From: Shigella phage CM1
Sequence record: MK962749
Length of the DNA stretch: 64,000 nt
Strand: one strand, 5' to 3'
The notes below the pieces were generated by a model that made no database searches, was not told the origin of the DNA, and worked only from the letters and a program-made list of their open reading frames with translations. The translations under genes and the position numbers were made by a program. Of the stretch, positions 41,534 to 55,254 are shown piece by piece; position 1 is the first letter of the stretch; each line of letters opens with the position of its first letter.

Positions 41534-42579
41534 GGCGGACGGAATGGGAATACTTCTCATTCTTATAACAATTCTCAAATATCGAGGCAGTGAGAGAAAT
41601 TAATAGGCCAGGCCGTTCACACAGTGGCACAACATTTGCAACCTATTTTGTGTGGATGAATGAGAATACCTATCATTGTGAGAACTGTTATCATTACGGG
41701 CAATTTAACATAATACCCATTATGCGCACCACTGGCGATACATACAGGGATTGATAACATGGGTTACTGTTTACGCACATAACAATTATATTTCTTATTA
41801 TTTGTGGGGGATATAGTTAGCAGCCAATAGATTAGATATTGACCTGCAGACTTCTGACCGTCTAGACGTCTAAACGCCCACACATCAAGGGTTATACATA
41901 CATTACTGAATGTAAACAAGGCCGCAAAAATGCTACCATACCAGTTTGTAAATTTTTCATGCAGCACTTGACAAAGAGGAGGAAAACTTGTCTGACATAC
42001 TGTGACATAATATGACATAATAGTGACACACTGGGCATACTCAACACACTGGATACGGCGGACGGAATGGGAATACTTCTCATTCTTATAACAATTCTCA
42101 AATATCGAGGCAGTGAGAGAAATTAATAGGCCAGGCCGTTCACACAGTGGCACAACATTTGCAACCTATTTTGTGTGGATGAATGAGAATACCTATCATT
42201 GTGAGAACTGTTATCATTACGGGCAATTTAACATAATACCCATTATGCGCACCACTGGCGATACATACAGGGATTGATAACATGGGTTACTGTTTACGCA
42301 CATAACAATTATATTTCTTATTATTTGTGGGGGATATAGTTAGCAGCCAATAGATTAGATATTGACCTGCAGACTTCTGACCGTCTAGACGTCTAAACGC
42401 CCACACATCAAGGGTTATACATACATTACTGAATGTAAACAAGGCCGCAAAAATGCTACCATACCAGTTTGTAAATTTTTCATGCAGCACTTGACAAAGA
42501 GGAGGAAAACTTGTCTGACATACTGTGACATAATATGACATAATAGTGACACACTGGGCATACTCAACACACTGGATAC
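41534..42579. repeat. tandem direct repeat, 2 copies of about 523 bp
   Basis: Minus-strand track ORFs 41764-42153 and 42287-42679 share an identical 96-aa C-terminal segment; likewise 41892 and 42415; both offsets 523 nt. Confidence 0.85.
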
Positions 42580-44472: not shown

Positions 44473-44745
44473 TTACTTATGGCGGCAGAATTCAAGCGTT
44501 TTTAATTGATAATCTTCCTCAGCTTGGAGTACGACCGCCTCGATCATTTCGTTGGCATTGTTAAAGCCATAACCTTTAGCGAACTCATCCGCGCCACCTT
44601 CGTGATCATGTTCTGCGTTCATCGCTTCCACAAAATGGAATTCCAAATTGTTGAGGTAGGGGCTTGATGTTCCGTCCTCTTTTTCGATGAGATCCCAAAT
44701 AGCATTAAAACGTGATTCGACTTCTTGATTAATCCAGCTTGACAT
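44473..44745 (-). CDS. hypothetical acidic protein
   Basis: 90-aa ORF. Confidence 0.45.
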   Translation of the reverse strand: MSSWINQEVESRFNAIWDLIEKEDGTSSPYLNNLEFHFVEAMNAEHDHEGGADEFAKGYGFNNANEMIEAVVLQAEEDYQLKTLEFCRHK

Positions 44746-44962
44746 AGTGTTTTCCTCTCTCCTGGTTGTTGTGTGGGCACTTTTGCCCCTTCAAGATAAA
44801 TGTTACCTCACCCCATGGCAGATGTCAACGGTTTTTATAGTTCTTATATGACAGGCAGACCTGGTGATTGTCTCCCCCTGTTCCCAAGTGCCGCCCGTTT
44901 AATAAGAATAGCAAAAGGGGCCGAACAAGTCAACCCCAAAATCAGTACCAAAACACTTTTAT

Positions 44963-45470: not shown

Positions 45471-45605
45471 CTAAAACAATGAGTTAATATATAACACCAG
45501 ATCGCTGACTACCAGGACAACATTAATCAGCACATACCTAACCATAAAGGGAAAGATCACCAACATTGCCGCCACGATCCCCATGGTAATAATTATCTTT
45601 CTCAT
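45471..45605 (-). CDS. 44-aa membrane peptide
   Basis: ATG 2 nt after upstream stop; MRKIIITMGIVAAMLVIFPFMVRYVLINVVLVVSDLVLYINSLF. Confidence 0.35.
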   Translation of the reverse strand: MRKIIITMGIVAAMLVIFPFMVRYVLINVVLVVSDLVLYINSLF

Positions 45606-46888: not shown

Positions 46889-46942
46889 GATGATTTACCT
46901 CTCTTTATTTTCATAATTGGGGCCTTTTCGGCCCCGCCAGGT

Positions 46943-47227
46943 TTATTTATTGATAGCGTGCAGCGGGAAAGGTACGCCAGGTTGATAGATAACTTTTACA
47001 ACCTCATCAGGGCAAAAGAAATTGCAGAATTCACCCTGATAAGCCTCATCCTCTTTTAATTCTTCATCAACATACTGGAAAAAGTAGTCAATGCTTGGAT
47101 AATCCTGACCGGGATTATATTCAACCATGGTTAATAACAATTCTTGATCATTCCGTACGATATGCATACCAGCTTTTAAGTATTTGGCTTCCATTTCTAC
47201 TACATCGCCAACGGTAACAATAGCCAT
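46943..47227 (-). CDS. hypothetical acidic protein
   Basis: 94-aa ORF. Confidence 0.45.
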   Translation of the reverse strand: MAIVTVGDVVEMEAKYLKAGMHIVRNDQELLLTMVEYNPGQDYPSIDYFFQYVDEELKEDEAYQGEFCNFFCPDEVVKVIYQPGVPFPLHAINK

Positions 47228-53496: not shown

Positions 53497-53694
53497 TTAT
53501 TTTTTATTAAACCAGTGGTTGATCTGGCCTTTTGTCAGGGCGCAACGATTAAGCTGTTGCCGGGTATAGCTCTGACCGCGACGGAATTTATAAAGGCCTT
53601 GCCCGTTGTTGATGGTTACGTCCACCTGGCAAACCATTTGATCGGTGACGGCCTGGTAAGTGTTGCGACGTACTTTAATTCCGTAGGCGTTCAT
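53497..53694 (-). CDS. hypothetical basic protein
   Basis: 65-aa ORF. Confidence 0.4.
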   Translation of the reverse strand: MNAYGIKVRRNTYQAVTDQMVCQVDVTINNGQGLYKFRRGQSYTRQQLNRCALTKGQINHWFNKK

Positions 53695-54089
53695 GATTTT
53701 TTATCCTCTCTGTTAATTAGTGTGGTGTTGTTCACCTTGCGAGGATAAGAATAACAGAACTCTCCGAGCTGTCAACCATTAGTTAGAATTATTTTTTGGG
53801 AAGAATTCTCCAGCCGCCGCCCCTGCCAGGTTAACCATCATTTTTCGTACTCTTCTTTATGTTCCAACGCTCCCGCCATAGCCTTTTCAACCAGGGTGAT
53901 AACTTCAGCGGCGTTGATCGCTACATTTTCCAGGGGATTATATTACTTTTCATTTTTGTACCTCCTCTTCAATTGTTACCTGCCCTGTAGCATAGGCCTG
54001 CCAGGCTGGCCCCGCCAGGTTGCAACGGTTAGCGCATCAGGTTAGAAAAATTTTTTGAAAAGTGTTGACAGCGGCCCCGCCAGGTGGCA

Positions 54090-54330
54090 CAATATACCTA
54101 TCGAAAGGACGGCAGGCACCGGTGACGGGGGAGACAACCACCGGGGATGGGCGCTGCATAAAATGAGAACGGTTATCATTATCATTTAAAAATTTATGCA
54201 AAAAATCCTTGCTTTCTTTGTCCTGTGTGATACTATAATAACAAGCCGGGGCAACAGGGGCCGGGAGACAATCACCGGGGGTGCCCGTTATTCTGCAAAC
54301 GAGAATGATTATCATTCAAAATTCTAAATG
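54090..54330 (+). ncRNA. two tandem related GC-rich units, candidate small RNAs or regulator-binding module (strand uncertain)
   Basis: Unit A (CACCGGTGACGGGGGAGACAACCACCGGGGATGGGCG...GAGAACGGTTATCATT) and unit B (GGGGCCGGGAGACAATCACCGGGGGTGCCCG...GAGAATGATTATCATT), each after a promoter-like TTGACA or TATAAT; approximate. Confidence 0.3.
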
Positions 54331-54419
54331 AGAACTCCTCGCATTTAATAAATTTAATTAGCGTGCTAATTACCCTCCGTAACAATTTCCTATAAAACAG
54401 TATCCCATAAAATATTCCC

Positions 54420-54640
54420 ATATAGAAATTTTAAAAATCCATTTCTGAAAACGAAAAATCGATTTCGTTCCCAAAAATTTCAGGTCGAGCTCCGGAACGA
54501 TTTCCAGAAAATCCGATTCAGAAAACGAAAAACAGATCGAGTACTGAGAAATTTATCGAGAAAAATTTTCAGAAAATTCAATCTTTGAAACGAAAAACAG
54601 ATCGAGTACCCGGAAAGCTGTACCGCAACCTCAAGATAGT
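54420..54640. repeat. array of three imperfect direct repeats
   Basis: GAAAACGAAAAA(T/C)(C/A)GAT(T/C)... three times at about 65-80 bp spacing, each preceded by AATCC(A/G)ATT; approximate. Confidence 0.6.
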
Positions 54641-54921
54641 GGTTAGACTATTACCATAAAAAGTAAAGGGTAAGTGGAGGAAGTTCTAGTAGAAGGATGT
54701 GAGCATGTGCGGGAAATCTGTAGTGGTGGTCTGGAATATGGTGCAAACGATAGGATGAGCGATTCAGCTTGTCGCGCCTACTCTGAAAAATCCATTTTAG
54801 TTTTCGATCCATTTTCTGATTTTCTAAGAATTTTAAAATATCTGGTCCGGTGAAATATCAAAAGGAGGAAATCCATTTTAGAAATCCTCCTGATCTCTAG
54901 CAACCTGATAACTTAAAAATA

Positions 54922-55254
54922 TCAGGTGCCCAGTTTGTTCTTTCCTTTATACAACCGTAAGGGTATAGTTTTTGTAACAGTCCATCTCCCCAGCCCTTCC
55001 CAGTTCCAGTTGTAGGCATGGTACCCGGTTACGCATGCACTGCTAGAATGGTCATAGGCATAAGAGAACGCTATACGCACCAAATGGAACCAGTCTTTCC
55101 ACGGTTGTGGTCCGTAAGCTTTTCTCCAACACCGACACAAACTAAATGTCTCAAGAATAGGTAGGATAACAAATCCATACACCGCCACCAGAATAGCCAG
55201 CGCAATGATTGTCAGGAATACATACCCTGCAGTTGAAACGATGATCTCTGTCAT
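54922..55254 (-). CDS. membrane protein
   Basis: 110 aa; N-terminal TM helices. Confidence 0.45.
   Translation of the reverse strand: MTEIIVSTAGYVFLTIIALAILVAVYGFVILPILETFSLCRCWRKAYGPQPWKDWFHLVRIAFSYAYDHSSSACVTGYHAYNWNWEGLGRWTVTKTIPLRLYKGKNKLGT

Follow-up and report, generated by a model that had tools for sequence, protein, structure and literature searches.

Two kinds of phage and plasmid replication origin are relevant to the region described here. The primary origin of phage T7 combines the tandem promoters phi1.1A/B with an AT-rich tract, and oriF and oriG of T4 are likewise activated by transcription, while iteron origins, such as lambda ori, P1 oriR, and those of the plasmids R6K and pSC101, contain direct repeats with a period of ~20 bp. 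Structured RNAs encoded close to promoters are represented by lambda nut and HK022 put, which are promoter-proximal elements with boxA/boxB or a two-stem put RNA, and by PrrF1/PrrF2, the tandem Fur-regulated small RNAs of Pseudomonas, whose promoters are covered by Fur boxes. Host Fur and DtxR control the phage-borne genes stx1 and tox, and Fur boxes in multicopy lead to de-repression of the Fur regulon, as in the FURTA assay. To our knowledge, the use of a host metal sensor by phages has so far concerned mainly toxin genes of temperate phages. The rV5-like phages are widely used in typing and biocontrol of Escherichia coli O157. In the rV5 genome paper, skew analysis failed to locate an origin, and a box labelled "non-coding" is left without explanation (PMC3606486).

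RESULTS

The island studied here is 1.2 kb long and is located between the minus-strand genes 53497..53694 and 54922..55254 of a 64-kb window (the whole stretch of DNA analyzed), which sequence comparison assigned to a Vequintavirus, 99.9% to phage I29. The first-pass annotation had seen no convincing ORF in it, and this was confirmed: every candidate, i.e., a 92-aa minus-strand ORF, 43/44-aa ORFs, and a 59-aa plus-strand ORF (at 54621-54785), is disrupted by frameshifts or stops in close relatives, and a comparison across these relatives revealed no conserved ORF within the island. The gene calls in GenBank records differ between annotators, who placed contradictory hypothetical genes there. 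The window contains no tRNA or tmRNA genes and no homologue of the small plus-strand gene that precedes the island in other genera. The features of the island are listed in Table 1.

Table 1. Features of the island and of the related module at 44.9 kb
Feature	Position	Strand	Remarks
Left-operon promoter, sigma70-like	53748..53775	-	TTGACA-16-TATTCT with TG; 5' of RBS and ATG
Small-ORF remnant, frameshifted	53790..53965	-	Intact (55 aa) in rV5_ev168
CCCTGCCAGGT box 1	53821..53831	+	Within 3' end of decayed ORF
CCCCGCCAGGT box 2	54010..54020	+	48-nt insertion with extra box just upstream in some strains
Putative promoter P1	54065..54093	+	TTGACA-17-CACAAT, extended -10; hexamers invariant in 9 rV5-like phages
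Hairpin unit U1	54105..54160	+	Loop GAGACAACCACC; 29.5 bits
Fur-box-like site a	54162..54186	.	Two overlapping 19-mers, 6-bp offset, each 15/18
Putative promoter P2	54209..54236	+	TTGCTT-16-TGaTACTAT; homologous to promoter before hairpin unit in other genera
Hairpin unit U2	54240..54294	+	Loop GAGACAATCACC; nearest family consensus; 61.8 bits, 35.7 bits
Fur-box-like site b	54298..54316	.	AACGAGAATGATTATCATT, 16/18; invariant in 9 rV5-like phages
Fur-box-like site c, degenerate	54327..54345	.	AATGAGAACTCCTCGCATT; 29 bp after site b; repeat family D17
Three iterons	54421..54620	+	57-nt core; start-to-start 74 and 65 bp
Variable purine-rich spacer	54621..54785	.	75-88% identity between strains
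Highly conserved A/T-rich block	54786..54842	+	Further AAATCCATTTT / GATCCATTTT motifs; extends iteron field
AGGAGGA-N15-TCCTCCT hairpin	54863..54891	-	Followed by UUUUGAUAU on minus strand
ACCTGATA-N9-TATCAGGT hairpin	54903..54927	-	Overlaps stop codon of gene 55254..54922; conservation not seen in every strain
Third module copy including hairpin unit U3	44839..44935	-	Loop GAGACAATCACC; 38.9 bits

There is nothing unusual about the outer parts of the island, which are made up of the promoter of the left-hand operon, a decayed small ORF, and what we read as the terminators of the right-hand operon. The promoter and the ORF form the left third; the left-hand minus-strand operon begins with gene 53694..53497, and the small ORF is deleted or broken in strains other than rV5_ev168. 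At the other end, the two strong hairpins reported earlier were both found, with arms at 54863-69 (AGGAGGA) and 54885-91 (TCCTCCT) and at 54903-10 (ACCTGATA) and 54920-27 (TATCAGGT). In the former, a G:C pair is replaced by A:T in L135 and L137, a compensatory change, and L133 and L134 have a G.U pair that is workable on the minus strand only. Both look like terminators of the right-hand minus-strand operon, the former an intrinsic one. They had been counted as part of a small-RNA or origin hub; their presence stands, while their function would belong to the neighboring operon.

Three CCCCGCCAGGT-like boxes had been claimed near 53806, 54011, and 54072 and are indeed there, at 53821, 54010, and 54075. 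With at most one mismatch, CCCCGCCAGGT occurs four times in the 64 kb versus 0.30 expected, a count reached in 0 of 100 shuffles; the fourth box is at 46932. The number of boxes differs from strain to strain, and box 3 (54075-54085) is simply the spacer of P1.

The central part of the island is different in its conservation. Among rV5-like phages, the core (54060-54620) is conserved to the same degree as the flanking genes, with 96 to 100% identity at 54080-54600 across 9 phages versus only 67 to 88% at the island edges, and parts of it retain 80 to 89% identity between genera whose flanking genes differ. The same layout was found in other Vequintavirinae genera and in Phapecoctavirus, and partly in one Aeromonas phage. 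It comprises a promoter of the sigma70 type, a GC-rich hairpin unit of ~55 nt (loop GAGACAAnCACC), one to five copies of the palindrome AATGAGAATnATTMTCATT, in many cases spaced by 29 bp, a stretch of AT-rich DNA, and three ~65- to 75-bp iterons with a GATCGAG core. The order of the elements is kept in GAP31, PVP-SE1, KB57, CR3, phiTE, Hena1, Kashira, ESCO5, and anhysbys, while Aeromonas phage 2L372X has the promoter, a different RNA unit, the boxes, and the iterons. Other genera carry at the matching place a second, different promoter-driven unit ("RNA-A"), which is absent from the window. The first-pass annotation had named a lack of conservation of the paired units or iterons in related genomes as evidence against its proposal; the proposal survives, since both turned out to be conserved far beyond close relatives. 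Some contigs end inside the island, but real genome ends were rejected as the cause, assembly breaks at the U1/U2 duplication being the better explanation.

These data bear on the view that the island is functionless debris between two operons, left over from decayed genes and duplicated promoter fragments, together with repeats that arose by chance. The left third, with its decayed ORF and its duplicated box fragments of varying number, and the variable spacer at 54621-54785 would fit this view, but it is already contradicted for 54060-54620, where the core is conserved within the genus like coding DNA and is shared in part by genera with differing neighbors. We find it hardly credible. Judged by its sequence, the island can be taken to be a non-coding control hub, conserved in rV5-like phages and in related large myoviruses.

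Two related GC-rich units of ~110 bp, each preceded by promoter hexamers, had been described in the core. Both units and their hexamers are present, with a period of ~135 bp, because the repeat families D2 and D6 have a spacing of 134 to 136 bp. The ends ascribed to them, GAGAA.G.TTATCATT, exist as GAGAACGGTTATCATT and GAGAATGATTATCATT but are Fur-box-like palindromes situated outside the RNA units. P1 and P2 appear promoter-like, by consensus and conservation only, and neither they nor the 44.9-kb promoter is included in the supplementary promoter table for rV5. The third copy of the module, at 44.9 kb, has the order promoter TTGACT-17-TATTCT, U3, second promoter, gene 44745..44473, and the promoter-hairpin module, with or without a box, was found elsewhere in the genome and in a Klebsiella-phage-like contig. 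Since U3 precedes an ordinary gene and not iterons, the hairpin module is not origin-specific.

We then considered whether the units give rise to discrete RNAs. In such a small-RNA locus, P1, P2, and the 44.9-kb promoter would make short structured RNAs, with the loop GAGACAAnCACC pairing with or binding a putative host or phage target, and the boxes and iterons would be separate features. The genome has three promoter-proximal copies, U1, U2, and U3, whose loop 12-mers match exactly under one degenerate pattern; all copies are predicted to fold with the conserved motif in the loop, the loop being conserved and the stems variable, and RNA-A provides another promoter-driven unit at the equivalent place in other genera. 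In a model-guided alignment, 85.5% of cells pair versus 39 to 55% in slid controls, five pairs are changed on both sides (a number reached by 4 of 500 shuffles), and several G.U variants pair on the plus strand only, all of which favors an RNA, but this alignment had been fitted to the structure. RNAalifold run on a MAFFT alignment of the units predicted no pairs. The folding z-scores are only -0.8 to -3.4, and hairpin arms swapped between phages fold as well as the native arms, so that co-evolution of the arms has no support from the arm-swap test. A search of the island for intrinsic terminators on the plus strand was negative, the U-tracts after the hairpins being weak or absent, and Rfam, searched at the gathering score, yielded no credible match in the whole window, none for the island units even at E<=1, and none in four related loci. 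The hairpin unit is conserved in sequence, with only modest support for its structure and covariation, and a small-RNA locus seems unlikely to us.

The units could also act as leaders of the lambda nut or HK022 put kind, in which the hairpin modifies RNA polymerase or binds a phage factor and causes read-through of downstream signals. There are multiple copies, each a few nucleotides past a conserved promoter, with U3 and the second module copy in contig L048 being upstream of ordinary early genes, and a conserved loop on variable stems would suit such a role. U1 and U2, however, run into non-coding DNA antisense to the neighboring operon, and no antiterminator gene was identified. We regard this explanation as quite improbable. 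Mimicry of ToxI or pseudo-ToxI was considered as well, phiTE being a relative, and was rejected: the 36-nt ToxI repeat is unmatched in the phiTE island and gives only chance 10- to 12-mers in the window.

The palindromes downstream of the hairpins were compared with the Fur-box consensus GATAATGATAATCATTATC, its 7-1-7 form TGATAATnATTATCA, and the Vibrio form AATGATAATAATTATCATT (PMC11353095; PMC7536154). They match at 15 to 17 of the 18 positions (15 to 16 for sites a and b, up to 17 in the boxes of relatives). The window contains 6 sites that match at 15 or more positions versus 0.1 expected, and a degenerate Fur pattern has 10 matches when both strands are counted, representing 6 distinct sites of which two are duplicate copies, versus 0.36 expected. 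Relatives have one to five boxes each, often with the 29-bp spacing. No other element of the island is as conserved as the boxes, and their distance of 8 to 11 nt 3' of the hairpin is fixed in all genera. In the commonest box, the mirror positions 6 and 14 form a G-A mismatch, so it is not an RNA hairpin that is conserved; this points to a protein site acting at the DNA level. The phage boxes favor G where the Fur consensus has T (position 6), and the binder could therefore be another protein. None of the boxes overlaps a -35 or -10, which would be the classic Fur arrangement; relative to P1/P2 they are located at roughly +55 to +100, and the next -35 follows after >20 bp. Control by Fur of a minus-strand promoter that overlaps the box, TTGAAT-18-CAGAAT, was discarded, since this promoter is weak and its -10 is not retained in phiTE, in the Aeromonas phage, or in L048. 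A search with one Fur query sequence revealed no phage-encoded Fur homologue in the window, and a literature search yielded neither a description of Fur boxes in the genomes of lytic phages nor RNA-seq data on Vequintavirinae. In view of the match and the conservation, the palindromes are putative operators for the host iron repressor Fur. Box arrays are known for extended Fur binding (PMC11353095; PMC7536154).

If so, the island might serve as an iron switch or a Fur sponge unrelated to replication. As a switch, the boxes would recruit host Fur and, with iron in good supply, block rightward transcription or attenuate it; as a sponge, the many copies of replicating phage DNA would titrate Fur and thereby relieve the repression of host iron uptake, to the benefit of iron-dependent phage enzymes. 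The conservation and fixed placement of the boxes would agree with either, as would their presence in degenerate form in the second module copy of L048, the further boxes in the 41.5- to 42.2-kb non-coding junction, and the box arrays in viral contigs, 39 of 120 with at least two strong boxes within 300 bp and 18 of 120 with at least three, in a sample biased by seeding with one box. The boxes are, however, off the promoter and few per genome relative to the abundance of Fur, their G at position 6 deviates from the consensus, no Fur homologue or iron-linked gene adjoins the island, and the iterons and the AT-rich tract would be left unexplained. An iron function of this kind alone is, in our opinion, rather doubtful.

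The three imperfect direct repeats of the earlier description proved to be real. They form a 57-nt family at 54421, 54495, and 54560 with 63 to 77% identity, each copy having the sub-motifs AAATCC(A/G)nTT, GAAAACGAAAAAC, and AGATCGAGTAC; a 24-mer of the repeat has one exact occurrence and one with two mismatches versus 0 expected. The third copy is much more degenerate and partly palindromic, and the copy first by position is partly palindromic. In the homologous islands of GAP31, KB57, phiTE, CR3, L044, and L048, GATCGAGnnCC occurs three times. At 30.7%, the stretch 54297..54596, which takes in sites b and c, an AT-rich spacer, and the iterons, has the lowest GC content of any 300 bp in the 64-kb window.

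DISCUSSION

The description of the island as a "small-RNA locus or second origin/regulatory hub" pointed in the right direction, the units and iterons being conserved and the anatomy origin-like, although a discrete small RNA is unsupported. Tandem promoters are followed by the 300 bp with the highest AT content in the window and by iterons far beyond chance; P1 and P2, by consensus and conservation, are directed into the AT-rich tract, and the non-template strand is G-rich. Counting against an origin, no initiator-like gene is found next to the island, the flanking genes matching only PHROGs of unknown function, a scan of the island for DnaA and IHF consensus sites gave 0 of each and no GATC enrichment, and the iteron period of 65 to 75 bp is long for a classical iteron origin. 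Also against it, the GC skew changes only at changes of gene orientation (see also PMC3606486). Weighing these points, we give a probability of roughly 0.4 to the island being a transcription-activated iteron-type origin, or a control region for replication or early transcription, that carries host Fur operators.

In such an origin or control region, the tandem host-type promoters P1 and P2 would direct rightward transcription, opposite to that of the minus-strand early genes around them, and each would transcribe a ~55-nt G-rich leader able to fold as an imperfect hairpin with the loop GAGACAAnCACC. Fur would bind the palindromes past each hairpin, and transcription would enter the most AT-rich DNA of the window and the iteron field, where a phage or host protein might bind the iterons and the duplex open. 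The G-rich transcript might then activate or prime replication by analogy with the T7 primary origin or with oriF and oriG of T4, and Fe-Fur on the boxes could be a roadblock or an architectural factor that ties this step to the iron status of the host.

The island is a concrete, testable candidate for the replication origin of rV5-like phages. If the palindromes do bind Fur, strictly lytic phages plug a metal sensor of the host into their own control DNA, and phage replication would be linked to iron limitation in the gut. Since the module is shared across subfamilies and box arrays are present in many metagenomic viral contigs, the result would generalize. It is possible, though we propose it tentatively, that Vequintavirinae and Phapecoctavirus, as large lytic enterobacterial phages, the Aeromonas phage, and many uncultivated viruses have Fur-operator arrays wired to a promoter-proximal hairpin and an iteron/AT-rich field and thereby read or perturb host iron to gate replication or early transcription, with the promoter-hairpin unit being an undescribed structured-RNA family. 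In practical terms, contradictory hypothetical genes are now annotated on this region.

Compared with the transcription-activated origins of T7 and T4, the island shares tandem promoters leading straight into the most AT-rich DNA and a predicted non-coding transcript, and its G-rich non-template strand would favor an RNA-DNA hybrid; it differs in that its promoters are of the host sigma70 type and in its additional iterons and Fur-like boxes. With iteron origins it has in common at least three direct repeats with a conserved core and an adjoining AT-rich tract, whereas its repeat period is 65 to 75 bp versus ~20 bp, its iterons lie in a stretch predicted to be transcribed, and an adjacent initiator gene and DnaA or IHF sites are missing. 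The palindromes resemble Fur boxes in being 19-bp A/T-rich sequences with a 15- to 17-of-18 match to the consensus, and site a shows the overlapping 6-bp offset of the classical box, but the phage sites are 3' of a leader hairpin and 5' of AT-rich DNA and iterons, belong to a strictly lytic phage, are regularly spaced by 29 bp, and prefer G at position 6. As in PrrF1/PrrF2, two related promoter-driven units of ~100 nt are arranged in tandem and associated with Fur boxes; in the phage, the boxes follow the units, and terminators, sequence similarity, and an Rfam match are lacking. Like lambda nut and HK022 put, the units would place a structured RNA right after early promoters in several copies per genome, but each consists of one imperfect hairpin whose loop is large and conserved, and no gene follows two of the three copies.

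Setting and coding potential of the island

The island, a gene-free stretch at 53700-54920 between two minus-strand genes, is 99.9% identical over the flagged 1221 bases to Escherichia phage I29 and 90 to 96% identical to ~100 rV5-like phages (genus Vequintavirus). Window genes occupy the plus strand as far as ~40 kb and the minus strand beyond ~43 kb, which places the island within a long series of small minus-strand genes; all neighbours tested belong to PHROG families of unknown function, and none of them has a Pfam match. The four features reported here by the first-pass annotation were all recovered in the window, by coordinates and with chance controls: the CCCCGCCAGGT boxes (4 occurrences at no more than one mismatch versus 0.30 expected), two GC-rich units recurring with a 134- to 136-bp period, each after promoter hexamers, direct repeats forming a 57-nt family of three copies, and both strong hairpins. 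A set of 16 to 18 GenBank records (MG0656xx; "Campylobacter phage" A141, C12, C2, and others) shows ~94% identity to this E. coli phage region, and some of these contigs break off inside the duplication of the two units; these appear to be rV5-like phages whose host label is doubtful and whose assemblies broke at the repeat.

Judged by its sequence, the island is non-coding. GenBank annotations of it disagree, calling different ORFs, different strands, or none. When nine rV5-like phages are aligned, a 92-aa minus-strand ORF and 43/44-aa plus-strand ORFs are broken by a 1-nt insertion in one phage (L139) and a 2-nt insertion in another (L133), while a 59-aa plus-strand ORF has stops or frameshifts in five strains. 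A 55-aa minus-strand ORF, beginning MEGNMIPLENVAINDAEAIALVEKAMAGALEHKEEYEK, is intact in rV5_ev168, frameshifted in this phage, and partially deleted in both pangalan and nomine; apparently it is a decaying gene.

The island edges are ordinary. A consensus minus-strand promoter serves the left operon. In three strains a G:C pair of the AGGAGGA/TCCTCCT hairpin is replaced by A:T through compensatory change; the hairpin also has one G.U pair viable on the minus strand only, and a U-run follows on that strand, all of which points to a predicted terminator of the right-hand operon. The second hairpin covers the last stop codon of that operon and is not conserved. The CCCCGCCAGGT boxes, of which there are 3 or 4 depending on the strain, resemble duplicated pieces of promoter regions. 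One forms the spacer of the plus-strand promoter P1, another is located in the decayed ORF, and a copy at 46932 falls in an unrelated intergenic hairpin. The latter (GGGGCC-N5-GGCCCC) is followed by GCCAGGTTT and has the 13-mer GGCCCCGCCAGGT in common with the boxes of the island.

Coordinates of features in and around the island
Feature	Position	Strand
Promoter of left operon	53775-53748	minus
Decayed 55-aa ORF	53790-53965	minus
Fur-box-like site a, after U1	54162..54186	
AT-rich tract (300 bp)	54297-54596	
Iterons	54421..54620	
Conserved block with iteron sub-motif	54786-54842	
Hairpin unit U3	44902-44839	minus
U3 module	44839-44935	minus
Gene after U3	44745..44473	
Intergenic hairpin with CCCCGCCAGGT copy	46917-46945	
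Duplicated non-coding stretch	41534-42356	

Conserved core and origin-like anatomy

Related records are mostly 90 to 95% identical over the whole island, and a 306-nt query over both units retrieved 19 records with at least 99% identity and another 95 with 95 to 99%. Within the genus, identity is 96 to 100% at 54080-54600, on par with the flanking genes, whereas it drops to 67 to 88% at 53880-54000 and 54600-54920. This distribution of constraint suggests a functional core that comprises two tandem predicted plus-strand promoters with their hairpin units (P1-U1-P2-U2) together with the palindromes, iterons, and AT-rich tract. The tract has the highest AT content of the entire 64 kb (30.7% GC), lies directly downstream of the tandem promoters, at which the non-template strand is G-rich, and contains the iterons, whose sub-motif AAATCCATTTT is repeated in a conserved block farther on. 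The island holds no DnaA or IHF consensus site and no GATC enrichment, and no initiator gene lies near it. The rV5 genome paper, in which an origin was sought by skew analysis, found only gene-orientation-linked changes and depicts an unexplained non-coding box (PMC3606486).

A sensitive search found the 3' part of U2 and the next palindrome at 80 to 89% identity in Cronobacter phages GAP31 and CR3, Klebsiella phages KB57 and BIS47, Salmonella phage PVP-SE1, Serratia phage Kashira, Pectobacterium phage phiTE, and Erwinia phage Hena1, at ~71% in Phapecoctavirus (ESCO5, anhysbys), and partially conserved in Aeromonas phage 2L372X, almost always in unannotated sequence. The relatives' loci share a layout within a gene-free island of 0.8 to 1.3 kb that lies among minus-strand genes: a small plus-strand gene in many cases, then a promoter with a GC-rich unit (RNA-A), a second promoter, a hairpin unit with the loop GAGACAAnCACC, between one and five palindromes (centre-to-centre spacing often 29 bp), a third promoter in some of the phages, and three ~65- to 75-bp repeats, each with a AAAAATTTTT palindrome and GAAAAnC-GATCGAGnACC. 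RNA-A is absent from the window; in rV5-like phages the module of hairpin plus palindrome is duplicated, and the extra copy (U1) stands in place of RNA-A. In other genera RNA-A (L003 1320-1405, L004 1385-1470, L127 1330-1415, and other non-rV5 loci) is a strongly conserved promoter-driven unit, CGCCACCCCACGGCGAAAAGGCGGGGCTAAC...GGAAGGTGGATCGCCGGTAG, with a possible pseudoknot and no Rfam match, followed by a TGTAAAGA direct repeat.

GC-rich hairpin units

A profile built from 14 homologues found exactly three copies in the window, namely U2 (61.8 bits), U3 (38.9 bits), and U1 (29.5 bits). U3 is preceded by TTGACT-17-TATTCT and followed by a second promoter and then an ordinary gene; the promoter-plus-hairpin module is therefore not confined to the island. 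A Klebsiella-phage-like contig carries two copies: the second lies 7 kb away from the main one, on the other strand, and is followed by a degenerate box. Every copy is predicted to fold into an imperfect 9- to 14-bp hairpin with a conserved motif in a 10- to 19-nt loop.

The first-pass annotation had proposed a small-RNA locus or a second origin or regulatory hub. A small-RNA locus is a serious rival, compatible with the hub reading. In a model-guided alignment, itself fitted to the structure, pairing cells reach 85.5% versus 39 to 55% with slid partners, both sides change in five pairs (reached by 4 of 500 shuffles), and several G.U variants are compatible with plus-strand RNA only. Folding z-scores are modest (-0.8 to -3.4), native arms fold no better than swapped ones, RNAalifold predicted nothing on the plain alignment, no plus-strand terminator was found after the hairpins, and the units have no Rfam match. 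We thus treat the unit as a promoter-proximal leader element and not as an established small RNA. Overall, the proposal is partly supported.

Fur-box-like palindromes

The palindrome consensus AATGAGAATGATTMTCATT is that of the 7-1-7 Fur motif TGATAATnATTATCA flanked by AA/TT. It shares its register with the Vibrio Fur box published as AATGATAATAATTATCATT (PMC7536154), and the classical Fur box GATAATGATAATCATTATC contains the consensus (PMC11353095). Six sites in the window match at least 15/18 positions, versus 0.1 expected: three in the island, two in the duplicated 41.5-42.2-kb junction, and one at 45582. The box sequences show that in the commonest one the mirror positions 6 and 14 place G opposite A, so two half-sites are conserved and not an RNA stem, which favours a protein site at the DNA level. 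The other serious rival, likewise compatible with the hub reading, is a Fur switch or sponge, in which these boxes would bind Fur. As one caution, the boxes do not overlap a promoter. A search with a Fur query sequence found no Fur homologue encoded in the 64-kb window.

Among 120 viral metagenome stretches, a sample biased by its retrieval with one exact box, 39 have at least two strong boxes within 300 bp and 18 at least three, and in one of the stretches the boxes are embedded in iterons that contain CGAGAT; even with the seed bias admitted, such clustering is not expected by chance. Unrelated viral contigs (L013, L040, L068, L109, and other IMG/VR loci) carry intergenic arrays of 3 to 7 Fur-box-like palindromes, embedded in L109 in 52- to 58-bp direct repeats with CGAGAT motifs that resemble the island's iteron core.

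The non-coding stretch within 41.2-42.7 kb, where plus- and minus-strand genes converge, contains a tandem duplication, exact over at least 300 bp and with a period of 523 bp, that carries four Fur-box-like sites per copy. Several rV5-like GenBank records start or stop exactly there and hold its sequence at two places; this probably marks the physical end of the genome, with a short terminal repeat in direct orientation that was joined in this assembly.

Overall reading and comparison with known systems

The evidence best supports a conserved non-coding hub; its likeliest identity is a transcription-activated iteron-type origin or a replication/early-transcription control region with putative host Fur operators, and we give this reading a probability of roughly 0.4. 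The combination of parts, the arrays of Fur-like boxes in lytic phages, and the hairpin family appear to be new, no description having been found in the sources searched, and a literature search found no paper reporting Fur boxes in the genomes of lytic phages. Each kind of part is already known. Site a consists of two overlapping motifs with a 6-bp offset, as does the classical Fur box, but Fur sites favour T where the phage boxes favour G. The AT-rich tract with iterons after tandem promoters recalls both transcription-activated phage origins and iteron origins.
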